DNA from: Raillietiella orientalis
Lineage: Eukaryota
Length of the DNA stretch: 64,000 nt
Direction of reading: 5' to 3'
Assembly (NCBI GenBank): GCA_036172245.1
Contig: JAYWIR010000063.1
Span: 248,001-312,000, forward strand
In this document: piece after piece, positions 1 through 52,845 of the stretch
How the letters are laid out: the number at the start of each line of letters is the position of its first letter
Numbering within the stretch: position 1 is the stretch's first letter
Notes under the pieces: model-generated
Seen by the model: the letters and a program-made list of their open reading frames with translations, nothing else
What the model was told of the DNA's origin: nothing
Database searches by the model: none
Program-made: the position numbers and the translations under genes

Positions 1-779
1 CTCAATCAACCAGAAGATTACCTGGAGGTACTTTGGCTTTCATTTCTCGATAAGTTAAATGTCACCACGAATTCATTTTACGTGGAAGCTGCCCCCTCCG
101 CACTTGCAGCTTCCCTGCCTGAAAGCCCCAAGCCGTGCCCGAAAAGCGGGCGCGAGCACGGCGCCAACTCGAAAACCCACCGCAGAGCACCCCATCTTCG
201 TGCCACACGAGGATGGGGTGCTCTGCCACACGAAGATGGGGACCGCGACCCGACGCTACGTTCGCAGCATCCCGGATCCGCGTTTCCGAGTGCGCGCGAG
301 AGCGTGCAGCTGCTGCCCGACTTACGTCCGCCCGTTTGCGGCCCTTCCTCGTCCTCGCTGCCCGCCGTGCCTCCGGGGGAACCCGAAGATGCCCTTTTGC
401 TCACGCAGCCCGGATGGTCGCCCGCATCCATGCCTTCCGCAAGGTGGTCGCCGGATGTGGCGCCATCCTAACTCCATCCCATGCGCCTCCCAACAGAACA
501 GGGCTATTTTTACACCAACAATCGGATGCGCGCGAACCATGACAACGCGCGCTCGACGGGAAGCTACGCAACCTGGCCGTCGGCAAGGTAACGGACGCAA
601 CCGATACCGCTGCCACGGTGGAATCGGCTCTCCGTTCCCGCAAGGTGATCCGGGGGAACGCCGGATCATGGCGCGTGGGAGGGGACTTTTCTTCTCCTTG
701 CAGCTCTCCCGAGCGCGCGCGCGCGCTGGCAGGCGCGGGAGGGGGGGGGGGAGGGGGCAAGCAGCAGCAGACGCAGCGC

Positions 780-1900
780 GAGCCTTCGGACTTTTGCTGT
801 TTCCCTCGGGGTTGCGAAGGGCCGCGCCGCGGAGGTGACGACGCCACGGCCTTGGGATGCGCAGCGGAGGTGAGGCGAAACTTTCGTGCAGAAGACCTCT
901 GAGATGCGAAGCGATGGCACGAGTGCTCAGCTTCCGGCTCTTCTTCCGGTCGCTCCTCTTGTGGGAAGCAGACGCGTGCGGATGAATCTGTGAACGTCAG
1001 GTGGTCCCCATTTTGCAAAAGTCGCTCCAGGAACTGCTCAGTCGGGCGCAGCGCGCGTCCCAATCCAGATGCTTCTTCATCAGGAGCTGCCACGCTTCCT
1101 CGCTCCGTGCAGCAACCCCCGCAAAAAAGCGAAATTGTGCTGACCTCGTGCTGACCACATCAACAACCATCACGACCGATCTGAACTGCCGGTTCTTATC
1201 ATTGGAACTCCCAAACGGCTCCTAATCTTAATGAGTCTTCCCTTCCGATGGTCCGCGGGCTCCGCGCATCCTCCACTTGTTCCACTTGTCCTGGCTTCCC
1301 AGACGTGTCTCCCGGCCTCAGCTTGCCTCGATCGTCTTCCGCGGATGTCAGAAGAATCTTCTTCAGCAGTCACGACCACCTCGCGAAGAGTTTCCTGGGG
1401 TCGCGTTCCGATGGCACCATCCGGTGAGGACAATCGCCTGAAGCATCTGGCCATGACGAAGCCTCATCCGGCAGCCTCACGAGACCAAGGCGGCTTCTGT
1501 TCTCTCCCCTCTCTCCGCAGGGGTGTCTCTGGACCAGCCAGTGATTTGCAGCGGCGTCTTCGCCATCCCCCTTATCCAGGCATTACCCGCCCATTTCCCG
1601 TCTTTCAGCGGCCTGGAGGTTCGACAAGCCGACTTTCTCCCATCCACTGCGTTTCGCCTTTCGGACGGCACCTGAGCTTCGTCTGGCGCGCCGCTCCGCG
1701 CGAGGGTCGCTCCTGTCCCTCGAGGGCAAGCGGTGAACTTTGCTCCAGCGAGTTGCCCTTTCCGATCGCAACGGAGGAACGCTCTCCACTCGTGACTCCG
1801 TCGGGAGAGAATCGGGAAAATAGGGAGCGGCGCCGAGCTCCCGGAAAACAGACGCAGCAGTTCATTCGTGCCCAGGTCGAGTTCTTCACGCGTGCTCTCT
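780..1900 (-). mobile_element. Decayed BEL/Pao-like LTR retrotransposon pol fragment
   Basis: Minus strand reads WQLLMKKHLDWD...WSDFC, resembling the Pao LQxLWxxKLDWD...W region, then a degenerate HxFxDAS-like segment. Contains frameshifts and stops. Confidence 0.45.
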
Positions 1901-2089
1901 GAGCTTCCATCTAAAATTCTATTCTCCAGTGTGAGGGTGGGGGGACAAGCACGCTTCAGGGAGAAGATTTTTTCCACGGGGAGGATCTCCTCCCAGTCCC
2001 CGAGAAATGGAACAGCACCGCAGGATCAGTAAATCATCGTCCAAGTGAGTCGTCCACGTCCGCTTGGGCATCCGTGATGCGCGGCACCA

Positions 2090-2665
2090 GACGTCCTTCG
2101 CCCGGGGGAGAAGGGTCGACAGCGAGAACGTGGGGTATGTCGTGGGTTTAGAGTCCTTCCCCCCGCAAGATGGCGCTGGTTGGCTCACTCGGGTATGGAG
2201 GCACTAGTGGAAGGAGGCCGGATGCCTCCGTTGACAGGCCGGGATTGGAAGTCGATCTTCCGGGATCCTTCCAGGAATCGAGGAGCCCTTCGTCCCCCCA
2301 CTCCTGTTGTGGATAGGGAGTCATCCCCTCCCTCTCGAGGGAGGGACCCTCCATCGCGTTCCATGGAGCTGGTTGATATCCCCCTCGGTGGGCTGCAGGT
2401 CCAGTGTGTCTTCCTTTCCGGGTTTTCTTCAGAGCAGGAAGAAAGGAATGAGAGGTTCCCTTCCGGATTCCCTCCGGAGCAAACCAGGGCGGATCCCTCC
2501 CAATCTTAAGAGGAAGGGACCCCTTCCTTCGGAGCCTTCCTGGATTCCTAGGGTTGTCCCTCCGAGGCTGAAGAGTTACTATTCGCGTTCTCTGGTGGCG
2601 TGTACTCTGCTTAAAGAGCTCTACGAGCCCCCGCAAGGTGGCCAACGGTTCTTTGAAGTCCATCG
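2090..2665 (+). mobile_element. tRNA-derived SINE-like repeat, copy 1
   Basis: Degenerate B-box (gggtttagagtcc) then caagatggcgctggttgg...ctggttgatatcccc...ggtggccaacggttct, shared with four other copies. Confidence 0.55.
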
Positions 2666-3227
2666 TTAACAAATCTGCATTTTATCCGAGGTCTTCCCCA
2701 CCTGAAATGAGGGTGGCTCGTGCCACTTCAGGGCACGGCAGGGATGGATCCAGAGCTCGGCCTCGGGCTCATGGCATTTCATCTGCCCAGTTGAGAATCT
2801 CCGGCGGAAGAGAAGTGCTGGGCTGTCCTACCACATCACGTCGTCATTCTCCTGACGACCCAGTCACATCGGGAAGTTAGGGTCGCTCCCCCACTCCTTG
2901 CCGGACCCTCTTCCGCATCCCTCCGAATTTTCTCCCCGCTCGTTCTGCTCTCCTTCGCACCCTCCTGAAAAAAAAAAAAAGGAAATAGCAAGGGCCCTGT
3001 GTCAGCAGAGATGCTGAACCCAATGGAGCTGGTTGGGCAATCTGGCATTCTTTATCGTGTTCCTCAGTGGAGGTTCGGTTTGTTATCAGCGACCACCCCG
3101 CTCCCTCCACGCAGTTCTGCAGGATGCCACCGCCAATCTTATCTTCAGGGCCTTGTCAGCACGACGTGAGTCACGGGACCACGGCGGTCTTTCGAGGCGC
3201 AGTTCCCGGCTCCCTCCTCCGCCAGAC

Positions 3228-3306
3228 ATGGTGCTGGAGCTGCGAAAGATGATGATCGCCAGCTACTTCCTGCTGCAGCATTTCGTGTGGTCCCTGACGC
3301 CGGAAG
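3228..3306 (+). CDS. Putative first coding/signal-peptide exon of the aGPCR ([26 protein letters not shown])
   Basis: Pyrimidine-rich cag acceptor at 3225, ATG at 3228, hydrophobic stretch, G|GTGAGT donor at 3307. Phase 1 matches the next exon. Confidence 0.5.
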
Positions 3307-6300: not shown

Positions 6301-9300
6301 GGACGCCCTTGCGGCTCGCACCCCAGCGGGTTTCGACAACGCCGGAGACGAGCCGATCGTTGCCTCCCTCGGGTCCCCCTTGTTGCCCCCAGCAACGACC
6401 GAGCGTGACACAGGGAAGCTTCCCAGCGCGCCGCGAAACGCGCCGGCAGGAAGTTGGCGACGCCCTGTAGGCCACCATCCCGAACGCCGGAATCCCCAGA
6501 GATCACAAAAAGCAACCGCGTCTGCTTGTCAGGGTTACCACCTCCATTTATTCACACATCAATCCACTTCATAAAGATCGAAAAAAATATGCTCATTATG
6601 TATACATCAAATACATGGCTGTAAATGCATATATACATTACACGTATTAGCATGCAGTTGTACATAAATATCCAATTGTAAACACATATTTATCCTGAGA
6701 TCAAAATCTCGAAAATACAATTCACAAAATAAATTAAATAAATATATAATTCGATATTTGTGCAATCATTTAATTAATCATCAATGTATAGTACCATTAA
6801 TGCATAGCATTTTTAATATAGAATCTTTAATATATACCGTCTTTAATATATTAAATAACCACGTGTGCTTATATAAATAAGCATACGTGTTTATTTTTTA
6901 TCATCTTCACGATGTATATATAACACACATATATTTTATTATATAAATTATGTACACCTTTATCATATATGTCAATAAACATAAATACATACAATCTATA
7001 TGTCAATAAATATCATCAACATATTAATATAGATGATATTTATTAAGATCTAAGTATTAATGCATATTATGTGTATAATAATAAATGTTCAACGTATATT
7101 ATACACCGTACTAATTATATGAATAAATAGGTATATTTGAATAAATTTGTGTTGTATTAAGCTATACGTATTTAATACCCGCAGTAAGGATGTATTTCCT
7201 GCTTTCGACGCGCGGGGTTTCCATGGGTACCGCGGCGATAGGGCAGCCAGCGGTCCGCAAGCGGCGGTCGCCGCGTACGATCGGGTGAGAGGGGCCTTCT
7301 CCGGGCTGCAGACTCACCGTTCGCAGGAAAAGGACGAACATCCCGGCCCTTTGGTACTTCCGGGAGGAGCGGACGGGAACCGGGACTCCGGCAAGGCGAT
7401 CCTCAGGTTCCGGCAACGCCTCTCCCGCTGTCGCCGACGCGTTCCTTTCGGGATCCTCGGCGGAGAGTCTCCGGCGAGGGGCCGGGGGCGCCCTGACCGC
7501 CGGGCCCGACTTATAGAGGACCTCCCGCGGCAGCACACAACAACGGGCGCTCCCCCGGTAGCACCCGGCTCGTGTCATCCGCCATACCCGCTTGCCTCCG
7601 AGAAGCTCTCATCCGACAAGGCACCCAGTCGCCACGCGGGGGGCGGCGGGCTGCGCGGCGCTCTTCACGTCCATGTGGACGTCCCCTCGCCGAGTCAGCC
7701 CTGCGTCCAGCTTCCCACCGGCCGGGGAAGGGAGGGGCGGAGCAGGGGAGCGGGGGGGAGGACGGCCGTCGCCTTTCCCTCTGCGCCGCCGCGACTCTTT
7801 CCGACCGCTTGCCGGCCGCTCTTGTCGCGTCCGGCAGCAGAGAAACGCCCTAGGGCAAAGCACCTTCCAGGCACCTTCCTCCCCCTTTCCACACGCTGGC
7901 CCTCCCGCACTGCCCCGAGAATTTGGCGGCGCCTCCACAGTTTGCTCTTGGGTCCCTATGAGCCTAGTGGCGCCCGCGCGAACATCCCCCTCCCCCCCCA
8001 CTTCTGCAGTTGCATCCGATGACCTTGAGAGAGTACCTTCCGATGCCCGTCAGTTAGCAGGCGTGCACGCCGCGGCGCTGCGCGTGCGACGATGCGCGAG
8101 CGGCCTCCACGGTTTCCGCCGGAACACTTCTCGCGCCCGGCTCCAGAGCTATGGCGCGCCAGCTGTGGAGGCGGACGAACCGAGACGGACTGGCCACCTA
8201 GGTCGGTGACTCGTCTCGAAGAACCTCTGGGCACCGTGGCGATCAGCAGCAACCCAGGGCTGCCAGAACCGCCTTCCAACGTGCGAAGAGAGCCGAGAGC
8301 AATATGGGCCAGGGTGGAGGTCGGGAAATCATTCCCTGGGATGAGTTCTCGGGAGCGGAACTTGACCGGCGCTCCGGCTGGGGTGTGGATGAACCCCAGC
8401 CACACGGGAAACGCAGCAAGCGGATGCGTTTGAAACGCGGCGGACGCGTTCCGCGTTGCGCGCGAGAGCCGTGGATCGCGCGTGCTTGCTGGCGATGGGT
8501 CCCCGAGCGTGGTGGAAGCGGGGCGGTCGCCGGTCCGGCTCGGAGCGAAAGGGGGAGAAGAAACGAAAGTGAAATTTGCGTCCCGCGTGTGTTGCGCGGG
8601 TCGTTGGCTCGCATCGCGGGTGGCTCCGCGGGTCCGCGTGGCGGTTTCCCGCGCCGCGCCATGAGAACCCCTGCGTGAGACTCCTCCCGGCATCGCCGCT
8701 CCCTCTGTTCTCGCGCGAGAGGAGGTAGGGGGCCGGGGAGGAGGTAGATTCAAGGGCCGGACGCTTCGTTGTGGAGCGACCACGCATGAGTTCCCCCCCA
8801 TTAATGGAGAGGGCATGGGTGGGTCCCCCGCCGCCCTTCCGGTCATCTTGCCTTCCTTGAGCGCTGCTTCCAGTTTCAGTTTTCAGCCTCCAGCAAGTCC
8901 GCTGCATTCTGACCGCGGAGACAGCGATGCTGGAGTGGACGTGCAACGCGGACGAGGTGCACGCGTACTCCATACGGCTGGTCAGCTCCCACGCATCCTA
9001 CACCGTCCGCCTCATGCCCGAACTGCCTCAGGGAACGTACCGCAGCGTCTTCCCGGTGGGCATCTGCCCGGTGAGGGACAAGCTGAGCGTGAAGATCTCC
9101 TCGGAGGACACCATGGACATGGGTGAGTCGGAGGTGCCCCCATCTCACTCCCCGGGGGCGAGCCCTCGTTCCCAGAATTTTTCGACCTTGACGAGGACTG
9201 CAGCGGCGAATACGCAGCGCCGAGGTTCCTCGAGGTCGAGGCCGGTGGCAACGGCTCCCTCTTCGTGTTCCACAACTACCGGAGCTACGCCACCGCCTAC

Positions 9301-12300
9301 TCGATGGACGACATGCGCTTCTATGCGGACTTCCAGTGCGGGACAGAGAGCTTCAAGTTCTTCTTCGAGGAGACGACGGACGAAGCCGTCGAGGTGAGAG
9401 ACCAGGAGCACTGCGACCTGGGCATTTCCATGCGGCAGGACGACGATGAGAAGCACTACGTGCTGGCCAAGAGGACATTCACTTCCGGTGAGGGAGGCCC
9501 CGAAAGGGGGACCCTGGGGAGATACGTCGAACGGAAATCCGGGATTCGTGCGTGCGCTCTTCCTCTTCTTCCTCCTCCGCGGCGGCGGCGACGTCTTCCT
9601 CCCGGTCCGCTCGCCAGCGCCCTGCGGGTCCCTCGAGAGCGACTTCGCGTCTTCCGGATCACCTTCCTGCATGCTGGTTTTCCGGGACGGCTCCCGGAAC
9701 ATACGGACGCCGCCGGACCGAGCGCGGGATCCAAAGCGCGACTTGGGTTCCCGACGTCCAGACGTCCGTCGTGGTGCGCGAAGGTTGGCTGCCGGCTGGA
9801 ACAGCGAGGCCCCAGAACGGAACTGATCTTCTCCGGACCCGCCCCGGGGAGGCTTGCCGCATCGTGGGAGCTTCTACGACTCTTTTCCGCCGCGTCCCCG
9901 TCCTATCGCTAAAGGAGGGCATCCGCTCTCTAGTCGACCGGAAGCACTGCTTTGGGGTAGCTCGAGAACCTGGATGGTACGTCACGTGACTGGTCGACGA
10001 GGGAGTGGCTCTCGCAATTCCTGGGAGGGCATTCGGACTCCCCACTCCCGACTGTCGCCTAGCAAGCGGAAGGCCAAAGCTGGCGTCGAGAGCACGCCAA
10101 TCCGATGCAGAGCCTCCGCCATCTCGCGGGAGGACGGGGAACCTGCGACGCGTCCAGCCCGGCGCCCGTCCTTCGCGGATGCCGCGCTAGGTGACGCGCG
10201 TGAAGGCGCGTCGCTCGCGACTGGTGAGCGGAAACCGAAAGCGTCAGCCGCGCAGTTGTGGTCTCAGAAGTTCGGAGATTCGAACCCTCCCATGAGCTTG
10301 GCGCCTTCGACGGCCCTGGAGCTGCTCAGCACTCACGGACCCCTGTGGGTGTCGGGAGTCGTGGAGGGGGACGACCCCAGGCGGATGAGCGGACCGCTGC
10401 CGCGAAGTTCAGCCTCGCCGCGAGATGCGCGCAAACCTCGGGGGGCGGGTCAGCGCCCTTCGAGCTGTACCTGGAAACCACGGGTGACATCCTCTGGTTG
10501 TGCACCTTGGCTCCGGAGGCTGTGGACCCCGTGACCGCCGTGGGTTCGAATCCCAGCGTGTGCGTGGTCGGTTTCGAAGCTTTTCGGCAGAGTGGCTCTG
10601 GTTGGCCCACAATCGGGTGCGGCAGTGGTGGAAGAGGCCGGATTCCCCGTTGACTGACCACCGGATCTGGTTGATACCCCCCTAGGGGGTCGCCTCTCCA
10701 GAGTGTCAGAAGCGCGCTGTTCCCTTCCGGGCTAGCTTCAGAGGAGGAAACCGGGAGCGATTCCCTTGCGGGTTCCCTTCGGAGAAGAAATTCAGGAGCA
10801 GCACCTTTCCGTGTTCTCTTCGGAGAAGAAGCGAGAAGAGGACCCCGAGGTCTCTCCAAAGGGAGCTAGGAAGAAGACGTTTCCCCCGGCCTTCGGGGTT
10901 CCCTTCGGAGACAACCAGGTCGAGGGTTCCCTCCCAGGTCTTCCTGGATCCACAGAGTGGTCCCTCCAGGGTCACTCTCCAGCTTGAAGGGTCGCACGCA
11001 CTGCCAGGTGGCGTGGACAGTGTCAAGGAAGAGTTTCTTGAGTCCTCCGTGAGGTGGCGAACGGCTTCTGAGCACTCCTTGGGAACCAGAAAAAGAGAAA
11101 AGAAATTCCGAGGGAGGCTGCAAGGAGCCAACAGATGGACGAGCGAAGGCCGTCGCCGCTCGCCGCACGCAAGCAGGAATCGCACTGATATCCTCCTCTT
11201 CCTGCTCGTCCCTCCCTTCCTTCTTCTCTTCCTCTGCTCTTACTTCCTTTCCCTCTCCTTCCCTCCTCCTCCCCCTCCCTTCCTCTCTCCTCCTCCGTCC
11301 TCGTTTTTCTTTAGTTCTTCCTCCTTTGACAGCTCGCAAAGCCAGACTGAACGTAATGAGCCACTTGAAAGTGACCCCCGTCCACTGTAGCTTGGAGAGG
11401 GTCTGCCTATCCTGCATTGTTCGGGACAGCTGACAGTTCCTTCCGGATGCTGGCTGCGTCCGTTGGTTCGGCAAGAGGCATCGGTAGCAGTGGATGGGCA
11501 ATGCGAGGTTGGCGCCATCGTGCGGGACGCAGCGACGCGGCTTCCGCCAAGCGCGGGTCGCGCAGTAACCCGGCACGCGCGTCGGTAGCAGGCAGGGCCG
11601 CGTGCGCCATCACGCGGGAGGACCGGACAACGGCGGAGACATCCGGGAGCCGCCCGGTCGGCCCAGCAATCCGTGGTGACCTTCCAGCGAGCTTCGGCGC
11701 TTCTGGCGCCGCTCAGGCTCTCTCGTCCTGGCTCTCCGGGCCCGCTCTTCCCTGGGGGATCGGGAGAGAAGAAGGAGGTGGGGGAAGAGGGAAGGGGGAG
11801 GTAGATGTGACGACGATTCCCGCGAGGACGTCCCAGCGAATGTCGTTTCCTTTTCTTTTCCTTTTTCCGGTTCGCTTGAAGCTCTCTTCATCGAAAGCTG
11901 CTACATGGAGGACCCCCGACCCTGCTTCTGGTTCTCGCAGGGGCTCATGCAGACCAAGTGCCCTGCTGGGTACATACTGTTCCAAAAAAAGTGCTTCCGG
12001 CTACCCGCCGAAGGGGACATCCATCCGATCGACTACATGACCTACCCGGACGCTCTGAAATTCTGCGAGGCCAACGGAGGGCGCTTGCCCCTGGCAAGCG
12101 TGGAGGAGGAACTCCAGGCCCAGCAGTTCATCGCGGCCTACTACCCGCAGCTGATCGCCCTGCCGGCCGACGTGACCCCCGACGTGTGGATATGGAGTGG
12201 TCAGGCGCTGGACGAGTGCTTCGTCTTCCGGGGGTTCGGCTTCACCCCGACCGAGAAGTACAAGCGCGCGGGCACCTCTCCCTGCTACGACACCAACCTG

Positions 12301-15300: not shown

Positions 15301-18300
15301 TTTTACCGTGCGCTCGTGGACTCACATCGTCATCCGCGGAGCACCGGGGCACACGAACGGCAGCGCCAACTTCTCCGATTTGGCTCGACTTGTTCTTGCC
15401 TTTTCCTGCACCCTTCAGCTAACCCTGCGGCAGTCACCCCTTCCACCTCGCGCCTCGACTCCGCCGTGGCCTCCGCCGCTCCTGCTGTGGTCGCAGCCAG
15501 CAAAGAAGGCGTGTCGCGCGCGCGCTCATTGTGATCAGGGGACGCGCAGTTCCCGCTCAAAGCTCGCGTGGGTCGGGGCATCGCACGGGGCCGGAATCCA
15601 CCGTTGCATTGGGACGCTCGCCGTCTCCCTGACGACGAGCGTTTTCGGTGGTCCCGCAGGGATGCACGGTAGCGACGGCAGGAGACGTGTTGGATCCCCC
15701 CCTTCGTGCTGTGGCTGCCGTCCGCAACGGACACGTCTAGCAGACCGTCCACGCAGCAGTGCCTCCGAGGTCTGCGTGGTTTTGCTGTCAATCGTGGTCA
15801 GTGGACCGGAAGCGCTAACCACCTGCTCAAGACCGTGCACGTAGCTCTTTTTCCGGCGCTCCCTCCGAGAGATCGCGCAGGTCCTCCGACGGGCGGCGTC
15901 CACCGCTGCTCGCGCGCTGTTGAGCTTCCTGGTCGTTTCCCTGACGGCAGCTGTGGTTGGCCGCCGGCGAGGGGCGCAACAACCTCGCGCGGCTCGCCGA
16001 AGGGACCCCTTTCGCACGCCGAGGAAGGAAAGGAGGGAGGGAACTGCGTGGGCGAAAGGGTCGTCCGGAAGCAGAACCTCTGGACGCGCGCGAACCTCTG
16101 AGGAACGCACCGCGCGCGCGATCGCGCCCTTCGAAACGCCTTCCTATCTTTCAGGTGCCAAGGAACTTCCCTCTGCACACTAAACATGATGAAAATTCGG
16201 AAGATCTTCTCTCACTCCTGTCCGCAGCCCCTGAGGGCAGAGCTCATCTTACAGTACCACTTTGTCAGAGCCTCCGCCTTCTATTGCCTCCCCGAGATGG
16301 TCTTTGACGAGAACATGTCTTCCTGCTTTGCAACTTCCCCGTCGACGAACACGGCCGGGGAGTCCCAGGATTTCTGCCGTTCGATCGGCGGCGACCTGGG
16401 TCCCATGACCGTGGCACCTTCGAAGGCCCTGGAGCTGCTCAGGACTGATGGACCCCTCTGGGTGTCGGGAGTTGTGGAGGACGACCCCAAACGGATGAGC
16501 GGACCGCTGCCGCGAGGGTTCAACCTTGCCGCGAGATACGCGCAACCCTCGGGGGGCGGGTCAGCGCCCTTCGAGCTGTACCTGGAAACCACCGGTGACA
16601 TCCGCGGGTTGTGCATCTTGGCTCAGGAGGCTCTGGACCCCGTGACCACGCCGACGAGATCTTCGAGTACAGCAGCCACACCGACGAGATCTTCGAGTAC
16701 AGCAACCACACCGACGAGATCTTCGAGTACTGCAGCCACACCGACGAGATCTTCGAGTACTGCAGCCACAACGACGAACTCTTCGAATCCAGCAACCACG
16801 CCAACAAGCTCCCGTAGCCCGACAACCACGTCGACGAGCTCCCGGAGCACCTCCTCCTCGCAACGCGTTTCCACTTCGACCGCAGGTTGGCCGCGCCGAG
16901 TCGCTTCGGCCCTGCGACTCTGGGTCGACCTTTCCTTCCTCTCCGCTCCCAGGGCCGTCCCCGTCGCAGCCCACGAACCACTCGTGGACGTCAACGACGC
17001 CAGGCAGCTCCGTTTCCTCCCGCAGCGCCCCTGCATCGACACCCTCGCCAGCCACGACCACTCGCTCGACCACGGAAGCAGCCACTACCAGGCGAAGTAG
17101 GTGAACTCCGCTGACCCCGGCGCTGCGCTGGCGTCTCATCGGATCGCGTGCGCCATCCTTCGCCGGTGGCGGGAAGCGCGAGCGCTTCTGGGCTGGGGCC
17201 GCACTGGCAGTCGCGGGTTCGAATCCCAGCGTGTGCGTGGTCGGTTTCGGAGCTTTTCGGCAGAGTGGCTCTGGTTGGCCCACAATCGGGTGCGGCAGTG
17301 GTGGAAGAGGCCGGATTCCCCGTTGACTGACCACCGGATCTGGTTGATACCCCCCTAGGGGGTCGCCTCTCCAGAGTGTCAGAAGCGCGCTGTTCCCTTC
17401 CGGGCTAGCTTCAGAGGAGGAAACCGGGAGCGATTCCCTTGCGGGTTCCCTTCGGAGAAGAAATTCAGGAGCAGCACCTTTCCGTGTTCTCTTCGGAGAA
17501 GAAGCGAGAAGAGGACCCCGAGGTCTCTCCAAAGGGAGCTAGGAAGAAGACGTTTCCCCCGGCCTTCGGGGTTCCCTTCGGAGACAACCAGGTCGAGGGT
17601 TCCCTCCCAGGTCTTCCTGGATCCACAGAGTGGTCCCTCCAGGGTCACTCTCCAGCTTGAAGGGTCGCACGCACTGCCAGGTGGCGTGGACAGTGTCAAG
17701 GAAGAGTTTCTTGAGTCCTCCGTGAGGTGGCGAACGGCTTCTGAGCACTCCTTGGGAACCAGAAAAAGAGAAAAGAAATTCCGAGGGAGGCTGCAAGGAG
17801 CCAACAGATGGACGAGCGAAGGCCGTCGCCGCTCGCCGCACGCAAGCAGGAATCGCACTGATATCCTCCTCTTCCTGCTCGTCCCTCCCTTCCTTCTGCT
17901 CTTCCTCTGCTCTTACTTCCTTTCCCTCTCCTTCCCTCCTCCTCCCCCTCCCTTCCTCTCTCCTCCTCCGTCCTCGTTTTTCTTTAGTTCTTCCTCCTTT
18001 GACAGCTCCTCTGAATTGGGAACTCACCGTGCTCGGGAGCGCTGTGTGGAGCAGACAGATGCAGGGAGGAGAGGGGGACAGAGCGCTCGTTCCCCTCTCC
18101 GCCTGTCGGGCGCCGCCGTTGCGTGTTGCCGTTCCGCCACCTGCCGCGAGAGCGCAGCACGCGCGGAAGCGAAGGCGGCCTCGCGAACGGCTCGCGGTCC
18201 AGCAATCGGTTGCGAAGATGCCCCTCCGAAAGCGGAGGAGGCGCCGGCTCAGCGTCACCCGCGCGAGCGGACCCCACCGATTCACGAGAAATTTGTCGCC

Positions 18301-21300: not shown

Positions 21301-23967
21301 ATTTCCGGGCAGCTCATCGCTTCCTGGGAATCTCAGCTACCAACGAACGTTTCGTTCCGGTGTCACCTCCCCTTCGTTTTCGTCGTGTACAGCAACCTTC
21401 ACTGCCTCCTGGAGGCGTCCTGGAGAGACAACATGTAAGACTGGGGAAGGAGGGCAGTGCGCCCCTTCGAGCATGACCTCATCCGCGGTCAGATGTTCCG
21501 AGATGCATCGCATCGATCGCAGCAAGGCGCACGCCATGTCGAAAGTCGTGGGGCTGGTCAGGTGGGTAGCCACTGGGAACTCGTCCCATCCCTTCGAGCA
21601 CCCCGTCGTCATCGAGATGGAGCATCTGACCGGCTTCAGGATCCTGGCGCATAGGTGCGTTTACTGGGACCTCAGAGAGAACAGGTGGGCGACCGAAGGC
21701 TGCGAGCTCGTCTCTTCCGAGTTCGGGTACACCATCTGCCGGTGCTCCCACCTCACCAACTTTGCCCTGCTGCTCGACGTGCACAACACCTCCCTCCAGG
21801 TACGCGGTTCTTCCAGGCACCTCCACGCGCCGGGTCGGCCGGCGACCTCGTCGTTCCCTGGGCTGGAGAAGTTCCCGAGAGCAGAACCTCCGCAGTCAGG
21901 GGGTGCTCAAGGGAGGGAATCTTCCTGTTCTCTCCCCCTACCCTTTCCTCGAGCAAGAACGCCGATAGGAGCTAGAGGGGCACCAGAGAGACACGACGGA
22001 GGGTTGCCCTCATCCGGCCTCCCCATTGGCATGAGAAACGTGCGTTGCCGATAACGGACGGATGTTCTCGAAGAGAGGCTCGAAGAGGAGGCAAAGGGGG
22101 GCCGCTTCCGTTCGATTGCTCTGCTGTTTTTACACGGAGAGAGACTTGAAAGCGGCGCGACCCGAGCGCGGCGGCTTCGCGGCGTGACGTCAGCGAGGCT
22201 CCAGGCGGGTCGGTTTCAAGCGGCGCACGCTGCATTTTCGGGTTCCCCCAAGGTCGGAGGATCACCAAAACTCCGATGTGCCACTGCCACTGCTGTCCGA
22301 ACCCCCTGGCGCCCCATGCGACGCGTGAATGAGCGCAGGGTGTTCTCTTTCGAGAGTGCCGAAATTTCGCTCCGAGTTGCCTGGTTTGCAGCACGCAACG
22401 CGCGCCATCCCCCTTCCCGAGTCGGCTGGCAGTGCAGGAGGATGCGGGAGACGCTTCTTCTTTGAGAACCCACATCTGCAGAGCGACGGAAAATGGAGTT
22501 GCCGTCCCCGGTTCCCCCGCGTCGTGCGAGCGGGATGTTTCGAGGGAAAAAGCCACTTCCCACCGTGGAAGCCTCCTTCCGGGAAAGGCGAGAACGCTGC
22601 AACCTCGAGGTCCGCCGAGGTGAGGGAAGGCTCTGCCTGTCGTCCGGCTCTGCCCTTCGAGAGCTCCTTTCCGCTCGCCTGTGTCCCGGACAAACACCAG
22701 ACCAGCAGTCTCGGACTACTTTGTGTCGCGGATGACCTTACGGTGGGCTTTTCGTTCCGCAGGCATTCCAGCAGGTAACGAGCGTCTCGGGGGTACGCTG
22801 CATTTTTTTTTTTTCTCCGTGGAACGCTTTGCACACGGCACGTTCCTGCCCCCTGAGCTTCCGGAGATAGCAAACGCCCTGGCAGGAGCGTGTCATAGTG
22901 CGGCGATATTTGGGGAAGGTGCGTCCACGCGTGGTCGGAGTCTCCCGCCCGCGTCAAGCCCCCTTCGTCCCCTGATCGGGAAGCACTCCCCGTTTCCTCT
23001 TCGTGGAGGTGCAGTGCACGCGCCGGTCGCAGGTTGCCAACGGAAAGCCCAGCGAAGGGGAAGGCGGGCTCGGAGATGGGAAGGCGTTGAGTGGAAAGAA
23101 AATTCATAAGCACTTAAGAAAAGAAGAAAAAGGAGTGGGGGTGGGGGATAACTAGGAGCTCTTTCGACCCCTCGAGGAAGGAGGGACCGGCGAGCGTTCC
23201 GGATCCCTTGCCAAAATCCTCTTCTGGGCCGAAACCTGGTGTGGCCGAACTTCTTCCCACCACCCTTTCTTCCAGAATTTCGAAACCTTCCTGGAACTCC
23301 TGGGGAAAACCGGGTGCTTCGTTTCGTTCCTGTTTCTCGTGGGCACGATCGCCTGCTTCCGGCTGCAGACAGTGCTGCCCTCGAGCCGGCGGACCGCCGT
23401 GCACCTGAATCTGTGCATCTGCCTGGCGGCGTCCGACCTGCTGCTCGTCCTCCCCGTCAAGTCCGAGGCCACCATCGCGTGTGCCATACAGGCCGGCGCC
23501 CTCCTGTACTTCCTCCTCTGCTCCTTCCTCTGGATGCTGCTGGAGGGCTGGCAGATGTACCTCATGATCACCAAGGTGAGTGGGGAGCTCTTCCTACCTC
23601 CGCGCGTGGGGCAGGCGAGCGGCCTCGACCGAGGGGGCCGAGGCGCGCTGGGAGATCCCCAAAGAACCAAAAAATAGGCACAAATCCCTACCCTCGTGTA
23701 GAGTGACGTAGATGAGTATGTAGATTCATGTAAAGATTATAAAAAACACATACATATATATCGATACACATATGTGTAGAATAATATGCATTCCAAACAT
23801 AATGAAAAATAAGCACACATGTGCATTATGCATATTTATGTATCGAGTAATATGTAGATCGGTATATACATGAAGATTATAAAAATAAACACACACCTTT
23901 ATTATATATTTATATAAAGAGCACTATATAGATTACTCTCTCTATATATAGAGAGAGTTATATATAT

Positions 23968-24039
<72 letters not shown>

Positions 24040-44000: not shown

Positions 44001-45904
44001 GAACCACCTCACAGACGCCGCTGAATCTACTCGCAAAAGCAACAGGGCGCCGCTCTCCGCCTGCTGATCACGTTCGCCTTGTTCCATCTCGGGTTTCCCG
44101 CGGCTCACCGTTCCGGAGGAGGCGGTCCTTCGAGAGGAGCAGCTCTTTGCACGCTGCTCGAGATGCGAGGGTTTTCTCCGCGCTGAAGAGACCGCAGCGC
44201 GGAGGCCGCTCCCTGTTCTCGCGGCTGCCCGGACGCCTGACGGGGGTTCCCTGTGTGGACGACCCACTCAGCGGAGGTGGCGGGGCGCAGCGAGCGGTTG
44301 GCAGCGCTGCGAAGGGGCTCATCCGCCCGGGCGCTCCTCCAGGCGTTGCTCAAGAGTGACGAGACGGTGGAAGCAGGATTTTTCCTCGCCGTCCAGTCTT
44401 TCACGTTGCGTATGCGATGGTCAGGATATACCTGCCCTCTGGCACTCAGACAGTATCCACGTCCCTTTGCCACTCGGGAGTTCAAAGCTCGACTCGTGGC
44501 TGCTGGCTTCGTCTTGAGAACTCTTCCGCACCAGAGCATCAGTTCGTGGGGCACTACAAATCCTGTCTATTCGAGCTGTAGGTGCTGCGCGACCCATTTT
44601 CTTCCGGTAGTGTTCAGCACCCGGTCCCCCGCGCACCCGTGGCGAGCCTGTCCAGGAAGCATCCTGGTTGTAACCCGACCTCCAGACCGGACGACGCCGA
44701 TGCGGTTGACTCCTTGCGTCCCCTGCGCCACGCATCGAGCGGCGCCTCTGGACTTTCTCGGGCGGGTTCTCGGAAGGCAGGAAGTCGGCGATTCGGTTGC
44801 CATGCGAGCATTCCGTTCGCGAGCGTCCTTTTTTCGGACGTTGCGAGGTCCTGCGTGCCTTTTGTTTCAGAGCGCTGCCCTCAAAGGCGTGGCTGGCCGA
44901 GCACTGGCGATTTCCGCGTGTCTCTCCATCGCCTGCGTGCCACAGGATTCCCCCTGCCGGCGCAAGAAGCGCACGGACCCTCCCTTCCGCTCCTTCCTTC
45001 CGAGTGTCTGAACCGCCGCTTCATTGATATGGAAAACCTTAGCAGAGCCGCTGGTCTTTCCGCCCTTTCACGGTCTTCGTTCCCCATTCAGGACAAGTTT
45101 TTCTTAAGTTGTTTCCTCCTTGGGGCTGCAGCTGAGGAAGTGCTCTGGCACTTGGGACGAAAGAAGCAACGTGGCACTCTCGATCTCCATTCGTACGGTA
45201 CGAAACATCGTCCGCGCACCTCGACACAGAGTCGAGTACGAACCGTGAGCCAAACGACTAGACTGGCGTCACGTGCGACGTGGCGCGCGACAGCCAGCGA
45301 CGTCCGCAAACGCCTGCTGCTCCGCCAAAGGGGTGCATCGTATTGTCAACTGTCCTCTCCGCATGTCCTCAACATGCTGTACTTAATCGGGAAACTGCTG
45401 TTGACCTTGGCTCGGCTAACCTGTCAAGAGAAACCGCAGCAAGAAAAGTGAACTTACGACATGCACGATAGCAAAGAAAAGAAGGAAACAAACAGGAAAA
45501 AAGAAACTGTAAGTACACTCCTGGCTGGTAACGGAACTCGGAAGTCTGTCTTGTACTTCTTGGACATTGGCGCCGCATGCGGATGATGAAGTGCAGCACA
45601 CACAGGGCGTCTCCGGACAGTTCTTCGAAGTTGCCGCACGGAGATGCAATCCGCCGCTGACGCTGTCTCGGTAGCGCGCCGTGGGCCGCCGCTCCCTCTT
45701 CTCTTACCGACCAGTTTAGCAAAAACAGAAATTTCTTGTCCAAGGTGAATTCTTCTCACACACACAGCGTCCTTGCCACCCCGCTTGGCAAAGGACCCGA
45801 AGCGGAAACGAAACGCGCCGGCCGTCGTTCCGATGACGGTTCCCGGTGAGGGAACCAGCGCAGGCTCATGGTGAACTGATGGGTTCGTGGAGAGAGCGGA
45901 GCAA

Positions 45905-46206
45905 GGCATTGTTGCGTGCGCGGCCGGGCGGCGTCGCCTGGAGACCACCCGACGCACTCCGAAATGCGCGCGCGGCTGCCGACACGGAGGCAGACGGAGG
46001 CATTGTTGCGTGCGCGGCCGGGCGGCGTCGCCTGGAGACCACCCGACGCACTCCGAAATGCGCGCGCGGCTGCCGACACGGAGGCAGACGGAGGCATTGT
46101 TGCGTGCGCGGCCGGGCGGCGTCGCCTGGAGACCACCCGACGCACTCCGAAATGCGCGCGCGGCTGCCGACACGGAGGCAGACGGAGGCATTGTTGCGTG
46201 CGCGGC
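45905..46206. repeat. Perfect 94-bp tandem repeat (3 units + 20 bp)
   Basis: Units start at 45905, 45999, 46093 and 46187 (ggcattgttgcgtgcgcggc...). Confidence 0.95.
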
Positions 46207-46719
46207 TAGGCGCCGGCGCTGACGGCGATGCCTGCTCTTCTGTCTCAGACAAGGTCGAGTCGCTCGCCGAACCTCCGGCAGTGCCCCGGGAAAATTCCAG
46301 GTGGCCGCCCTCCGAAGCGGAGGCGGAAACCGGGAAGCGACCCATCGTTGAGGCGCAAAGGCTCGCTCGGTCACTTGGGGCTGTGAAGACTCTGGGAACA
46401 AGGTGGTGGGGACACTGCTTTCCTCTGCCTTTCGTTGCGGCGGCAACATCGGGAGAGTCCGTCGCCGACGTGAGGTCCAAACTGACTCGCGTGCTTCCGC
46501 TGTACTGATGGAGGACCTCCCCCCACTGCCGAAGCTGGTTGCCATACCCAATTCTCTGCCCTCTTATTCTAAAAGTTACAAGAGTTGCCCCTTTTCGGTT
46601 CTGAGTCTATGGACAGGTGCTTCACAACGAACGTAAATTTTTTTTCTTGATCAATTTTTTATTTATGCATTTGTTTAAAAACAAGCAGCCTTTTCTTTTT
46701 TAAAAAAAAAGACAAAAAA

Positions 46720-47070
46720 TAAATTGATATGAAGATATACTAGATGGGCGGCTGGAAAACACAAGAAAACCTTGGGAAGTAGACGTTCAAAATGGTATTT
46801 GCGAAATCGTTTGGTTACAGGACTGCAAGAGTGCATCTTCGCGAGATGCACCCGGGGAAACTTCTCGGAGGACGAGTGTTTGGAAAGTTGACTAGACGCA
46901 CGGAATCCAGAAGCCGAGGTTTCTCGCGAGGGAAGAAAGGGACCCTCGGGCCTCTTACCCTGCTCCCAGACCATAGGTGGAACGAGAAATGTCTGCCCTT
47001 TGTTTAGAGAGTTGGAATGCGGACTCTCCAGGCATAGAAAATGAGTGCCTTATTGTCAGCGCATGGAGTG
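46720..47070 (+). mobile_element. Possible APE endonuclease N-terminal relic of a LINE
   Basis: EIVWLQD and SRG segments resemble APE motifs DIixLQE and SRGVA; weak. Confidence 0.25.
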
Positions 47071-49899
47071 GATATATCTCTTCACGCAGCAGCACGTGCG
47101 TATGCAACAGCGCATGCACAACGGCGCCTACGCAACAATGCACGCGCGCATGCAACGATCGTGCGGTATGCGTAACGCGTCGTTCGTGGAGCCACCAATG
47201 TGATGCAAGAAAAAGTCCGATGCCATTCATGAAAACTGTTGCGGCCGCTTAATTTTGCATTCATTCATTTTTTCCCGGGAAAATGCATCCGGCCATACCT
47301 CAGCTTGCAGCAGCCAGGGAGGCAGAATCTGTAGGGGTGCGTACCTCCAGTAGTGTCCTCCCAGCGCAGCTGGGCACACAGCCAACCCATGCATGCGCAC
47401 CCAGCACAAGAACGGGGCCTGTAGCGCCATCTCTCAAAGTTTGTGAACCTGCAATTTGAAGACGCGGGTCCCAGGCAGCTACCCGAAGTTCCGTGGACAA
47501 CGGGATTTTCGATAAATGTAAAGGAAGCGAGGGCGTGCTCAGACTCCGGCTGTGTGCTGCAGTGCGTTTTCTTCGGCTACTTTTTTCAATCTTTGTTCCC
47601 GCGTAGGAAAAATCTGCATCATTCATTCGTGGGGCAGTCAGCGAGGAGTAAACGTCAAATACGTGCGATTACCACCGGGCATGTGATGCTCGTAATGCAC
47701 GCATGTGCACGCGGGGCAAGGCGAGCTACACGACTTGTGTAGCATCTGAATCAACCCTCTGTGAGTCATGACGATCTGCGCACTGATGACTTGTGCTCGG
47801 GAAGCGAACAAGCGCGGTGCTCGCATCCGAGAGAGCTGGGGACTTCCTCCTCCGGGAACGAGGGTAGTCGGTGCTCTTCCGTCAAGCCATGCGTCCCCTA
47901 GATCGTGATCTCCCTGCGCGCGAATGCAGCAGTAAGTGGAACAGCCTTCCACGGGTGTGTTTCTCGCCTTTGACAACCGAGGTCCCAACGGTGCGCTCAG
48001 GCGCGCTCCAGAGTGGCACCAACGTCCCAAAGGAGTGCTCCCTGAAGTGGGGGCACCGTGAGCGATGGGAACGAGCGCGTTTGTTCGGCATCTCCGAGCT
48101 CCTACCTCTCCTCTGATGAGGATGGCAAAGACATCTTGTGGTGCCAAAATCACATCAAGGGAAGTGTTCCTTGATCGAATATGGAGTTCTCTTCAGCGCC
48201 GGCGAGCTCAGCCGGGCATGAGGTCACCGGCAGACTTTGTGCTCCCTTGCACGAACGGGCAGCTGTCCCAGCGAGACGTCATCGCGTTTCCTGATGAGTC
48301 CTGGACCTTTCGCGACACATTCCACTATGCTTCCCCGGCAAGTTGCAAGTTCTTTAGCTTCGCCATCCGAAACAATGGAGAAAGAAGAAGACCAGCACGT
48401 GCAAAAGAACAGGAGTCTAGGAAGAGCAGGAGAACAAGCCAAGGGTGGAAAGGCGCATGCAAAGTTAAGATCTGCTATCACGGGAGTTTTCTTGTCTCAT
48501 CCCACTTTTATTCCCACTCGAAAGTCCCGAGAATTATTTAGGAAATGGATTTCCGATCTTCCAAAAAGAAGCCGATAGCAGCACCTTCCACAGACCACTC
48601 CTGAGGACGCGAGTAGAGGTGGCGAGGAAGAGTCTCCTAGGAAACTGAAGTTCTGCGACCAGAATGGGAGGTTTTCCTCTGCCGGCTAGAGTCATTCGGT
48701 AGCGGCCCTTAACAGACAGGGCTGGTGGATCTTGAGTATCAATCTTGGACGACGACGATAAGCTCGTCCTGAGCCCGGTAGGAAGTCTCGGACCACCGCC
48801 TTTGCCGCGGAGCGAAGGATTCCGAGAGCGTCCATCTCATCAGCGGCGTCCCGTCTCCTGATCTGGAGAGTTCTTGAAAACGACTTTCCCTAAGGTTTGC
48901 CTCAGTTGCAGAGGTCCTCTCGTGATGGTGGCAATTTCCCTTTCGAGTATTGGCCCTAGGGGTGGTTGATGTCGTTGATGATGGATCGTGTGAATATGGA
49001 GAGCGTTATTAGTAATGAGGGTAATGAGGAACCGGGGCTGTTAAAAGAGTTCCCGTATGACACGGAAGCATCGTAAACGCACTCGTTTCCGGATACCAGA
49101 TGAGCGTTCTTTTCGGTATCTTTTCAGAAACCCACGCAGATTCGTCGTCATCAATTTACTGCACTGTTAATGAGAACCATCGTGTTCAGGGGATTCGCGC
49201 TTCGATCTCGTCCGTCATTAACCACTTGCTTTCCCTTGGAAGATTGTTTCTGAAATTTCTAATCGAAGATGGCAGACATGATGACCACAATTTTTCTCTC
49301 ACAGTGGCAAAATTTTTTAGAAGGATTCGAAAAATGAATCAGCCGCGGTCTGAACTCCTGGTCTTGACTTTCAGTCCCATCGCGGACTACAAACTGATGG
49401 AAGAACCCAAAGGTACAGCCTGAACAAAACACACTCGTGCACACACTCACGAATGGTAAAAAGGTGCTCTGGAACACCTCAAACAGACTGCAAAGATGTA
49501 ACAGAATTTTTCCGAAAACTGTGTGCTGGTAGATCGGTAGCTGAAATTCCAGGGAAGGGAAAAGTTCTTCCAAACGGCTTATTCTGGTTTCGTGAGTTCA
49601 TCACAAAGCCGACTACAAGAAATGAAGGGTGTTTTGAAGGGAAGTCAGTAGTTGAAATCTGATCCAAGAAACAAAGATATTGAGGAAAGAGGCTTGGAGA
49701 GTATTTGAAATACGATTCCGATGATTTATAAGAGGCTGTGAAAACAAAAGGAAGGATTTTTAGGCGTGCCTGAAGAATTTACGCTACCTAGGCTGATTTG
49801 GGAAACAATTTCACACTAAAAAAATGCACAGAGTGGTTCTGAGTGATGTTCATTCTCAAGACAAGCCTCCACGGAGAAACATGGAGGCCAGCGGTGGTG

Positions 49900-50700
49900 G
49901 GTTTCGTGGTTTGCTTGCAATCGTCAGAAGTGGGCACGATCTGCCTTTGGACAGGGGTGTGGGTAGGCCTCTCTCCATAAGAGCAAGGAGCAACTCCAAA
50001 TAATAAAACTCGAAATACAATTTATTCGTTCATGAGGAAGCATGTCCTCTGATTCGCAAGAGAAAGGGATCATTTGAATTTTTAGGACAGTATTGCGTCC
50101 GTCGAATGATGCGCCAAATATTGTCTTTGGTGACCATATGATGTAAAGGTTTGCACATGTGTCCGTATACATGACGAAATACAAGGCAGAGTCCGTTTGC
50201 GCCCTCTATTCTACTGTAAGCTCTAAACACACTTGTGGAAATCTGGAAGGGTGCCTCTGTTTCTGCAGGCCTCTCCAGCAGTGTTTCCCAGTGGAATACC
50301 AGAAAGGTTCGAACCATTACAAATATCTCAATAGTCTGTGAAATAGATGGATAAATAAAAAAGCAAAGTTTCCGGATAGGATGTACTCTAAAGAACATGT
50401 GGCACATTCCAATAGATCATCCTAATAAATCCTTTCCTGTCAAAAACAGCGTGTGGGAGAGCACCAACTATGAGAAAATCGAAAAGTTCATATGTTTTGG
50501 CATTTGCCAAAGTCTTGTCCACATGCGATGTGTGTAGGTTTTGCCATACGACATAATCAACGACTAGCAGCGAGGCTTCCATCTTCATTGCTTAAAGCTT
50601 TCATTCCGTTTTGCAGCTTCAGAAATCGAAACTGCATTCAGCAGTGGACGGCGCAACACGGATACGCTCGTTCCTTTATCTGAGAAGCAACCTGAGAAAG
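49900..50700 (-). mobile_element. Decayed Gypsy-like integrase region
   Basis: Minus strand YVVWQNL...KCQ...PHAVFDR...FPQVCLELTVE resembles the integrase zinc-binding/rve regions; frameshifted. Confidence 0.45.
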
Positions 50701-51732
50701 AAGAAGGGACAAATGGATGCCTTTCGGAGTCTCGCGGAAACCGCGCCTCGGCGACCAGCAGAGCCGAGCCGAGGGTCGGATGTCACGGCGGAAGAAGGAT
50801 GGCGCTGGCGCGAAACGGGTCGGAGCAGCACTCCGGGATTGGGGTTTGTGATCGAAAGGATTGGTGAGGATGAAGGGCTAATAAGGTCGAATCCGAAATC
50901 AAACCAAAGACGCTGGAAAGGTTCCCGGCTCGGAAAACTCGGAACCGTAGTTTCTTCCCTGTTTTCGTCCGTTTGGCATCCGTCGAGTTGCTGCGGGCAG
51001 CGTGCATCCCACTCGAGAAGACGATCTCTTTCTTCCGGGTGCTTCCCCTCAGAGGTGTTTCAGTTCAGCTTTCGAAGGGAGGCCCTGCCGACTCCCAACG
51101 CATTCAAGGAATATGAGGAAGTGAATCTGCACCTTCGCGTTTCGCCCGCCCCGCTGCGGTCTTTGGGAATAACCAAAATTCATGCCCTGTCGGTGAAACG
51201 CGATGGGGATGACCGAATCGTCGCTCCCTCCTCGCCGCTCGTTTGGTTCCCGCCTTCTCTTTTGCATCAGCATCCGCGGGTGCACGTGAAAGGGTGGGTC
51301 AACGGGCAACGCAGCCACCGGCGAGGACTCCTCCCTCCACAGGAGGCAAACCGTGGATCCGCAGATCCCGAGGAGCCTCCGAGTTTCCGGCATCCCGCAG
51401 GAACTCCGGGACGGGGACGAGGGATCGGAATGGCGGGCAGCCTGGACACGTAGCCCGTGTGAGCGCGTGGGGTATTCAGGTGTGCTCAGTACGTGCGAAA
51501 GGAAAAAATATATATATATATATTTTATTTATTTTGTCTTCCAGAAGAGCTGAGCTTCTCTTGGGAGCGAAACGAAATCGTACCGAGGGAAAGGAATGAA
51601 TAAAAAAGGAGTACACAAATACACACACACACGTGGAATAATTCGGTAATGAAGTGAATTGAAAGTATTCGATGAAAAGCAGCATTTGAAAGGTGGCAGA
51701 GGGGGAGGGGGGGAGAGAAAGAAAAAAAAAAC

Positions 51733-51736
<4 letters not shown>

Positions 51737-51771
<35 letters not shown>
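51737..51771. repeat. (CA)n microsatellite
   Basis: Directly visible. Confidence 0.95.
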
Positions 51772-51775
<4 letters not shown>

Positions 51776-52004
51776 CGATCTGATTGAAAGACTTAAAAGA
51801 CGGCTCCGGTCAGTGTAAACGTTTCGAATTTTCGGCAGTGCAGTGTTCTCTCGTGTTGTCGTTTTTTTGAAACATACGTCGTCTCTGAATGGAATGGGAA
51901 AGCGGGAAGGGACTGAGGGAGGAACGTCTGGCTGTTATTTATTTTATTTCCCGTGTCTGCTGCCGGATTTTCCCGCCGTGAAGCACCACCAGCCGGCCCT
52001 CACC

Positions 52005-52316
52005 GGGAATTTTCCCAACCCCCGGACGTCACCACCGCAGGAAGGGTGTTCCCCCCCCCCCTGCTTTCGCCCCCCCCCCCCTCGCAAACACCGTGCACGC
52101 GGTGTTTCGAAGCCCCGAGCGAGAGGACGGCTGCTGCCCGAACGTACACCACCACCATTTTCCCTCCCCCCGTTCCCCGGAATGCCCGTTCCGGGATGGA
52201 AGTTGCTCCTGGGATTCCTCCCCCCCCCTCCCTTTCCCCCCGTGGGGTGGGGTGCACGAAGCAGCCCGTTTCGAAAAAAGTGGGGAGGGGGGGGGAGGCG
52301 GGGATGGAAAATTCCA
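52005..52316. repeat. MITE-like segment with short terminal inverted repeats and C/G runs upstream of USP9X
   Basis: ggaattttcccaacccc (52006) vs ggggatggaaaattcc (52301-52316); left part C-run rich, right part G-run rich. Confidence 0.35.
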
Positions 52317-52845
52317 ACGAGTTTTCGGGGGATTTGTGGGTCTTCACCATTCGAGACGTCGGTTCGTTTGCACGCACAGATTCCGTGTGTGTACATGTGT
52401 GCTCGCAAAGAGTGTGTGCGTACCGTACTCGCGGCTCGTGTATGCCTGGCCGTACACCAGTACACCAGTAAATTGTGGACTTTGTAGCCCCAAAAAAAGA
52501 GGAAAAAAATGTGGTGGTGTGGTTGATCAGCGAAAGCGAAATTACCGCGGGCAGGGAGATGATTGGATGGGTGAATGCTGCCTCAATGTTATCACTCTTA
52601 CTTGAAATTTGTGCTCATTATTTACGTTGTGTTAACTCATTTTTTCTTACCTTTTTTTTTAAAAAAACAAAAAAAAATCGTTCCAAAAAGAACACTTACG
52701 ATTAGGAACTGATGCTTGTGCTATAACGATTTTTGTTCAGAGCTATGAGTTATCCTTATTTGTAAAAATTCGAAAAGAGGATGCACACAGTTTCTGCACC
52801 AAAAGTAATGTATAATAAGTGATCGTCTCAGCTTCTTTCGACAAA

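Follow-up and report, generated by a model that had tools for sequence, protein, structure and literature searches.

How can adjoining DNA on one animal contig come to differ by some 30 points in GC content, and what sets the edge between the two states? The question is raised by a 64,000-nucleotide stretch from Raillietiella orientalis, hereafter the window (positions 248,001 to 312,000 of contig JAYWIR010000063.1, here C63, from the assembly GCA_036172245.1 of 210 Mb and 491 contigs), in which a GC-rich region carrying an adhesion G-protein-coupled receptor (GPCR) gene gives way to an AT-rich gene of the USP9X/USP24 family. A sequence-only reading had proposed a regional AT-to-GC process that acts on the left side and enriches CpG there. 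We find that the contrast is genuine and recurs as part of a gene-scale mosaic of composition, unusually large in amplitude, whose bounded unit is the housekeeping gene. The left side is thus not the local anomaly that had been suggested: GC-rich DNA is the majority state of C63, and the AT-rich side is a bounded, gene-linked domain.

Two compositional states within the window

The GC plateau (positions 1 to 46,500, unstranded) is 61.5% GC, with observed/expected ratios (o/e) of 0.96 for CpG and 0.36 for TpA, and holds the receptor gene with its introns together with dispersed non-coding repeats. It is followed by a ramp (46,500 to 52,580, unstranded; 50.6% GC, CpG o/e 0.95, TpA o/e 0.51) and then by an AT trough (52,580 to 64,000) containing the 5' half of the USP9X/USP24-family gene on the forward strand, with 32.4% GC, CpG o/e 0.41 and TpA o/e 0.67. 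Once two AT islands, which the sequence-only reading had not noticed, are left out, GC over 1-46.5 kb is 62.3%, and 52.7-64 kb is 32.5% GC. The contrast first noticed by eye is therefore borne out, as a descent from 62.3% through 50.6% to 32.5%. A change-point fit gives 46,500 and 52,600 as the best pair of breaks and 52,580 as the best single break. The boundary is a 6-kb ramp that ends in a step. Its right end agrees with the position near 52.5 kb proposed earlier (fit 52,580-52,600), but its left edge does not, since the ramp begins at 46.5 kb rather than 48.5 kb.

The AT-rich gene is identified by a PF25010 match in the window and a UCH match farther along, and both gene and trough run on to about C63:317 kb. 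A homolog search with its protein matched two proteins, both without names. Read by eye, the probable first coding exon spans 52,847 to 52,927, with the first ATG at 52,847, and the composition step lies about 270 bases 5' of this probable start. CpG-dense patches at 50.6-52.5 kb, directly upstream of the gene, may have a promoter role. The exons are 38% GC (GC at third codon positions, GC3, 0.35; GC at fourfold degenerate sites, GC4, 0.30; CpG o/e 0.43; 569 codons), and the long first intron is 30% GC, with a CpG o/e of 0.32 and a G>C skew of +0.11. The value of about 30% GC once given for this gene including its exons thus describes the first intron but not the exons. The sense-strand G>C skew, between +0.1 and +0.17, is steady over positions 52,700 to 64,000, and the plateau has no such skew.

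On the plateau, the adhesion GPCR exons lie between 11,941 and 26,028 on the forward strand, with GPS and 7tm_2 matches above cut-off and an HRM match below it. Eight stop-free exon stretches with edges set by eye (835 codons) have a GC3 of 0.81, a GC4 of 0.82 and a CpG o/e of 0.90. Silent sites therefore match the regional level in both genes: the receptor's GC4 of 0.82 stands beside introns of 0.60-0.65 GC, and in USP9X both GC4 and the intron are at 0.30. We suspect additional upstream GPCR exons near 8.9-9.5 kb. The exon sequence at 16,640-16,800 consists of 30-base tandem repeats and encodes a threonine/serine-rich, mucin-like stalk.

CpG is at a normal level on the left and scarce on the right. 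This corrects the earlier view that CpG is enriched on the left, where o/e is 0.96, the expected level, and it is the USP9X side that is depleted at 0.41. GC is 60-65% in the receptor introns and across the 20 kb that follow, and five non-coding stretches of the plateau have CpG o/e values of 0.95-1.03, so that no unconstrained DNA lies clearly above 1 and a CpG-enriching process finds no support. The many CGCGCG runs on which that view drew do exceed expectation (76 seen, 33-36 expected), but GCGCGC is equally in excess (73), and CGCG is seen only 450 times against an expected 374-388.

Housekeeping genes as the units of the mosaic

Over 264 kb of C63, GC-rich DNA predominates, and troughs with a low CpG o/e and only 31-43% GC interrupt it near 154, 214, 244-248, 302-316, 384 and 410 kb. 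These AT domains measure 4-15 kb and are tied to gene class. Among the seven dips scanned (148 open reading frames, ORFs), six carry a gene recognised by Pfam, five of them of housekeeping type; the matches are to CSN8/PSMD8/eIF3K, ATP synthase D, Pre-SET/SET, the rest of USP9X, a proteasomal AAA ATPase and an alpha/beta hydrolase. The seventh dip, a shallow one at 334-338 kb, has no Pfam match.

Gene class also predicts composition across the genome. Three classes were sampled: helicases through the best 30 of 73 Helicase_C matches, homeobox genes through the 30 best of 90 homeodomain matches, and cuticle genes through all 14 of their matches; a few of these loci overlap. The helicase loci have a median GC of 0.37 and a median CpG o/e of 0.50, with 27 of the 30 below 0.42 GC and 27 of the 30 below an o/e of 0.7. 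For homeodomain loci the medians are 0.60 and 0.90, and one of 30 falls below each threshold; for cuticle loci they are 0.59 and 0.88, and none of the 14 is AT-rich or has an o/e below 0.7. Median GC3 is 0.33 for helicase, 0.84 for homeobox and 0.85 for cuticle genes. CpG depletion is thus restricted to housekeeping gene bodies.

Genes that could act in such a pattern are present. DNMT1-like exons with a PPCQ motif lie at C11:3.436 Mb, and a DNMT2-like gene is also found; both names are assigned from motifs. The ADD_DNMT3 profile has no match in the assembly, which is not proof of absence. MutS-family (MutS_V) matches occur at seven loci, along with one Spo11-like match.

Could methylation alone, by CpG decay, have produced the troughs? 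When neighbour-dependent substitution is simulated with CpG transitions raised eightfold, a 0.62 regime settles at 0.52 GC and a CpG o/e of 0.38, and a GC of 0.32 with an o/e of 0.42 is reached only from a base regime of about 0.36. CpG decay as the only cause of the GC drop is rejected, because the simulation stops at 0.52. It is too weak, and therefore two regimes are needed beyond methylation.

Repeats and mitochondrial inserts as substitution records

The comparison of repeat copies between flank classes, which had been proposed in advance, involved 118 copies (<90% identity) from 15 families of GC-rich repeats, permuted within families. Compositions do differ with the flank: copies in GC-richer flanks are themselves GC-richer (slope 0.12, p=0.0003; p=0.001 when flanks farther away are used). 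If local equilibrium matched flank GC point for point, a slope of about 0.20 would be expected. Rerunning the test with a different merging gives a slope of 0.119 (p=0.0007), and p becomes 0.035 once the largest family is removed. The between-copy excess ratios, from pairs that are not independent, are 1.13, 1.12, 1.16 and 1.25 for CpG and non-CpG transitions and transversions. The shift acts on all pairs of weak (W, A or T) and strong (S, G or C) bases with no CpG preference, so a regional AT-to-GC process is partly supported by the tracking of flanks, but not in its CpG-enriching form. A process resembling repeat-induced point mutation, or one specific to CpG, is rejected because the between-copy bias has no context preference. 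Some of the slope could come from unaligned parts of elements or from a preference in insertion.

Repeats with matches in 648 kb of compared DNA make up at least 18.8% of positions 1-52.6 kb and 3.9% of the right side. The plateau had been said to hold transposon relics; coding relics are not seen, as none of 284 ORFs of at least 105 amino acids between 1 and 52,600 matches a transposon Pfam family, but dispersed repeats do cover 18.8%. A MAJIN match among those ORFs was rejected as below its cut-off. The GC-rich family next to the pseudo-exon described below is 55-61% GC in flanks of 43-65%. Because copies have this composition even in 43-50% flanks, the GC-rich repeats tested were largely GC-rich from birth, so that most of their GC came with them.

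Two copies of this family, at 10,542-11,335 and 17,215-18,008, both on the forward strand, differ at 2 of 794 bases; other members are 68-91% identical over short stretches on many contigs. When the duplicate is extended to 818 bases, nine of its 11 differences fall in the misaligned first 24 bases, and the remaining two lack family coverage and are hence unpolarised. The 794-base pair adjoins a duplicated exon pair that has diverged by 10%. It is either an old duplication with a recently homogenised tract, as by ectopic gene conversion, or a local assembly fault.

The exon pair consists of a pseudo-exon at 10,288-10,536 and its source at 16,401-16,647, within an open adhesion GPCR exon (both forward strand; 89.6% identity, with indels). 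The by-eye tally of about 11 AT>GC and 5 GC>AT differences was confirmed on recounting as 11 W>S and 5 S>W, with 6 GC-neutral differences, all unpolarised. G or C stands in the pseudo-copy at all five synonymous W/S differences, and non-synonymous ones divide 6:5. The ratio of 11:5 is compatible with equal counts (p=0.21) and departs from equal per-site rates (p=0.007; 85 W and 161 S sites). The direction of change is assumed, not shown, because no third copy was found among the 40 scored of 3164 candidates; the pair therefore cannot carry the argument for AT-to-GC change that had been built on it.

The plateau holds three further features. An AT island at 6,540-7,190 (unstranded; about 22% GC, TpA-rich) has weak matches at six other places. 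A second TpA-rich element of about 22% GC, at 23,655-25,170 in a GPCR intron (unstranded), belongs to a diverged dispersed family with 76 matches. An inverted terminal motif marks both its bounds and both ends of many relatives, and the family shows internal palindromy; the element is probably of foldback type or akin to miniature inverted-repeat transposable elements. Across 33 loci with flanks of 43-70%, members of its family stay at 18-27% GC (Spearman -0.02). Directly before the start of the ramp, at 45,904-46,219, lies a tandem array of a 94-base unit in about 3.3 copies of 97-98% identity.

Nuclear mitochondrial inserts (NUMTs) are abundant, with 54 and 58 matches to COX1 and COX3 profiles, respectively. 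Their changes were polarised at codon positions fixed in 120 arthropod proteins per gene (478 COX1 and 135 COX3 sites). The 28 weakest, probably oldest, of the 58 COX3 matches were left out, and 17 near-duplicate or non-nuclear loci and two without flank were dropped to give 41 inserts. These show 367 W>S changes at 4199 W sites and 249 S>W changes at 3299 S sites, for an equilibrium GC (GC*) of 0.54 (bootstrap 0.46-0.62), a value uncorrected for multiple hits, which pulls it toward 0.5. Sampled flanks span 0.35-0.59 GC. By flank class, GC* is 0.53 (9 loci, mean flank 0.38), 0.50 (18 loci, 0.45) and 0.62 (14 loci, 0.55; 0.47-0.72). Inserts in flanks of at least 0.50 GC have 92 W>S changes at 1210 sites and 43 S>W changes at 941 sites (GC* 0.62).

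The oldest inserts in GC-rich flanks (L105, L108 and L110) have gained 9-12 points of GC over the mitogenome, and L089 and L091 in AT-rich flanks have gained none; L092 and L107 run opposite to the trend. First passes gave Spearman correlations of 0.75 for second codon positions (15 loci), 0.10 for first and second together (23 loci) and 0.19 for third positions (29 loci). Site-level tests (Fisher p=0.03, likelihood-ratio p=0.014) are pseudo-replicated, with a corresponding locus permutation of 0.22. Neutral DNA has a high equilibrium GC here, and the regional trend is suggestive.

At invariant NUMT sites TpA>CpA is the commonest T>C context, with 32/330, 58/548 and 30/255 across the three flank classes, and TpA o/e is 0.36 in the plateau vs 0.67 in USP9X. 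One insert (L095, C18:3640000-3647000) has 21 C<>G changes among 196 invariant S sites, far above any other. Several NUMTs among L085-L116 and L198-L224 are duplicated at 97-100% identity; C33 carries four or more copies, and some pairs lie close to contig ends. Two contigs, C282 and C285 (L083 and L084), are partial mitochondrial sequences of about 9.2 kb that are 99.5-99.9% identical by segment, one of them frameshifted. COX1 from the mitochondrial contig matches pentastomids best (Armillifer and Linguatula, 73-74%), with insects next at 69-71%, and lends no support to an ostracod origin; among the 120 COX3 hits listed there is no pentastomid. By these genes the animal is probably, but only tentatively, a tongue-worm-like crustacean.

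Explanations for the mosaic and its known counterparts

We consider it probable that the mosaic reflects conversion-driven GC gain in unmethylated, recombining DNA, with methylated, low-recombination housekeeping genes left near their AT mutational equilibrium. The genome would then be a gene-scale mosaic of two long-standing substitution regimes. DNA outside housekeeping genes would be unmethylated in the germ line and would drift to about 0.6 GC, most likely by GC-biased gene conversion during recombination. This drift would fill introns, intergenic DNA and the silent sites of tissue-specific genes, and would slowly pull inserted repeats and mitochondrial fragments along. Broadly expressed gene bodies such as USP9X would be methylated by DNMT1 and lose CpG by deamination; with low recombination they would escape the GC bias and rest near an equilibrium of about 0.33-0.36 set by AT-biased mutation. 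The window's boundary would mark the 5' edge of one such gene. The data show the composition, its link to gene class, the DNMT1-like gene, the context-independent shift among repeat copies and the weakness of CpG decay alone; methylation, differences in recombination and a bias acting at fixation rather than mutation are what we infer.

Several results weigh against this conversion-based explanation. Restricted to the 39 copies on C63, the repeat slope falls to 0.045-0.084 (p=0.16-0.29), and the GC of old AT-rich elements shows no dependence on the flank (slope 0.035, p=0.31). Private changes in one GC-rich family are more often S>W than W>S whatever the flank class (GC* 0.39-0.47), with 71 S>W and 42 W>S in flanks of at least 0.58 (GC* 0.47), as counted by a majority rule that is biased toward S>W. 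The NUMT trend by flank has a locus permutation p of 0.12, and with extra sites witnessed by other inserts GC* becomes 0.51, 0.48 and 0.58 (p=0.09); neither p is significant. NUMTs in the AT-richest sampled flanks (mean 0.38) have a GC* of 0.51-0.53, above what the model predicts, and CpG>TpG is not raised in them (7/106 vs 41/650), nor clearly in any class.

The NUMT values lend themselves to another explanation, namely that the regional bias lies in mutation or repair rather than in conversion. The spectrum would be balanced or GC-ward outside germline-expressed methylated genes, and processes coupled to transcription or chromatin would make gene bodies AT-rich. We regard this as doubtful, even with GC* at roughly 0.5 or above in each of the three flank classes, the strong TpA depletion of the plateau, the prevalence of TpA>CpA in every NUMT class and a USP9X strand skew that suggests transcription-linked mutation. 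However, the repeat-copy shift is alike in transitions and transversions, which fits a general bias toward strong alleles better than a single lesion, and the uncorrected NUMT estimates are drawn toward 0.5 in any case. To our knowledge, AT-biased mutation is near-universal among animals. It is stated for the honeybee in the available text of one study (PMC4406589). In a less probable form of the same idea, this lineage would have lost the usual AT pull on neutral DNA over most of its genome (NUMT equilibrium GC 0.5-0.65) by mutation or repair that favours GC instead of by conversion, with methylated housekeeping genes shielded at 0.33-0.36. If this were true, the mutation spectrum of each gene would be determined by its chromatin state, and the changes of spectrum would fall at promoters.

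It is also rather improbable that composition was simply inherited, with GC-rich repeats piling up in the plateau and being kept out of compact housekeeping genes, and with CpG decay and codon selection on GC3 doing the rest in the absence of any regional bias. The repeat load of the left side, the 55-61% GC of family copies whatever their flank, their S>W private changes and the persistence of AT-rich elements at 18-27% GC all suit this account. Against it, copies still track flank GC within families, plateau genes have a GC3 of 0.81-0.85, old NUMTs gained GC in GC-rich flanks and none in AT-rich ones, and CpG decay alone cannot reach 32% GC. Finally, a chimera or contamination, with two organisms or mis-joined sequences meeting near 52.6 kb, could be hinted at by the near-identical 794-base duplicate but is scarcely credible, because about six places within 264 kb, the far end of USP9X among them, show the same trough shape and gene class predicts composition on dozens of contigs; the change also includes a 6-kb ramp, and the plateau repeats are common to many other contigs.

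With population reads and a methylome, this genome could test directly, for each gene, whether methylation suppresses recombination and conversion, and its many NUMTs are a polarised neutral marker already at hand. Housekeeping genes can be picked out here by composition alone, and contamination filters based on GC would wrongly cut the genome. Both components, housekeeping gene-body methylation and GC-biased conversion of unmethylated DNA, are already known. The notable points are size and grain: 62% vs 32% GC within 6 kb, and a GC3 of 0.84 vs 0.33 by gene class. Our search for pentastomid literature on nuclear genomes, GC content or methylation found only mitogenome and unrelated papers, with most subscription journals outside its reach.

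In vertebrate isochores, coding, intronic and repeat DNA share a common regional GC level. The same holds here, but at the scale of single genes and with reversed polarity, as housekeeping genes occupy the AT-rich compartment. Among 150 insects, mean GC3 of single-copy genes ranges from 13 to 62% between species, and the accessible text of that survey describes no split by gene class (PMC10978632). Gerbils carry megabase clusters of runaway GC, and, as in the GC-rich compartment here, genes within them have very high GC3, attributed there to GC-biased gene conversion (PMC7403616). Unlike those outlier clusters, GC-rich DNA is the majority of our contig, and it is the AT domains, 4-15 kb long and set by gene class, that interrupt it.

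Arthropod methylation favours conserved housekeeping genes, according to the portion of the source available (PMC7343188). The present genome resembles this pattern in that CpG is lost only from conserved, broadly expressed gene bodies, repeats are undepleted and a DNMT1-like gene is present. It differs in that CpG-poor genes are also some 25-30 GC points lower, beyond simulated CpG decay, with methylation deduced here from CpG o/e only.

The closest counterpart is the honeybee, Apis mellifera, as far as the available text of its study goes (PMC4406589). There too, housekeeping genes are low in CpG and AT-rich, tissue-specific genes are high in CpG and GC-rich, and non-coding DNA escapes CpG decay. 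Low-CpG housekeeping genes carry germline methylation, and crossovers in them occur at 29% of the rate seen in high-CpG genes. GC-biased gene conversion is strong (B 5.71), and the suppression of recombination or conversion by methylation was proposed as a hypothesis. Recombination and fixation bias were measured in the honeybee, whereas here they are part of the proposed explanation. The honeybee genome is 34% GC, with introns of 23% and a non-coding CpG o/e of about 1.7; in contrast, plateau introns here are 60-65% GC, CpG o/e is about 1.0 and a 30-point contrast is compressed into 6 kb. The mosaic thus looks like a steep version of the honeybee's mosaic of methylation and recombination rather than the product of a new CpG-making process.

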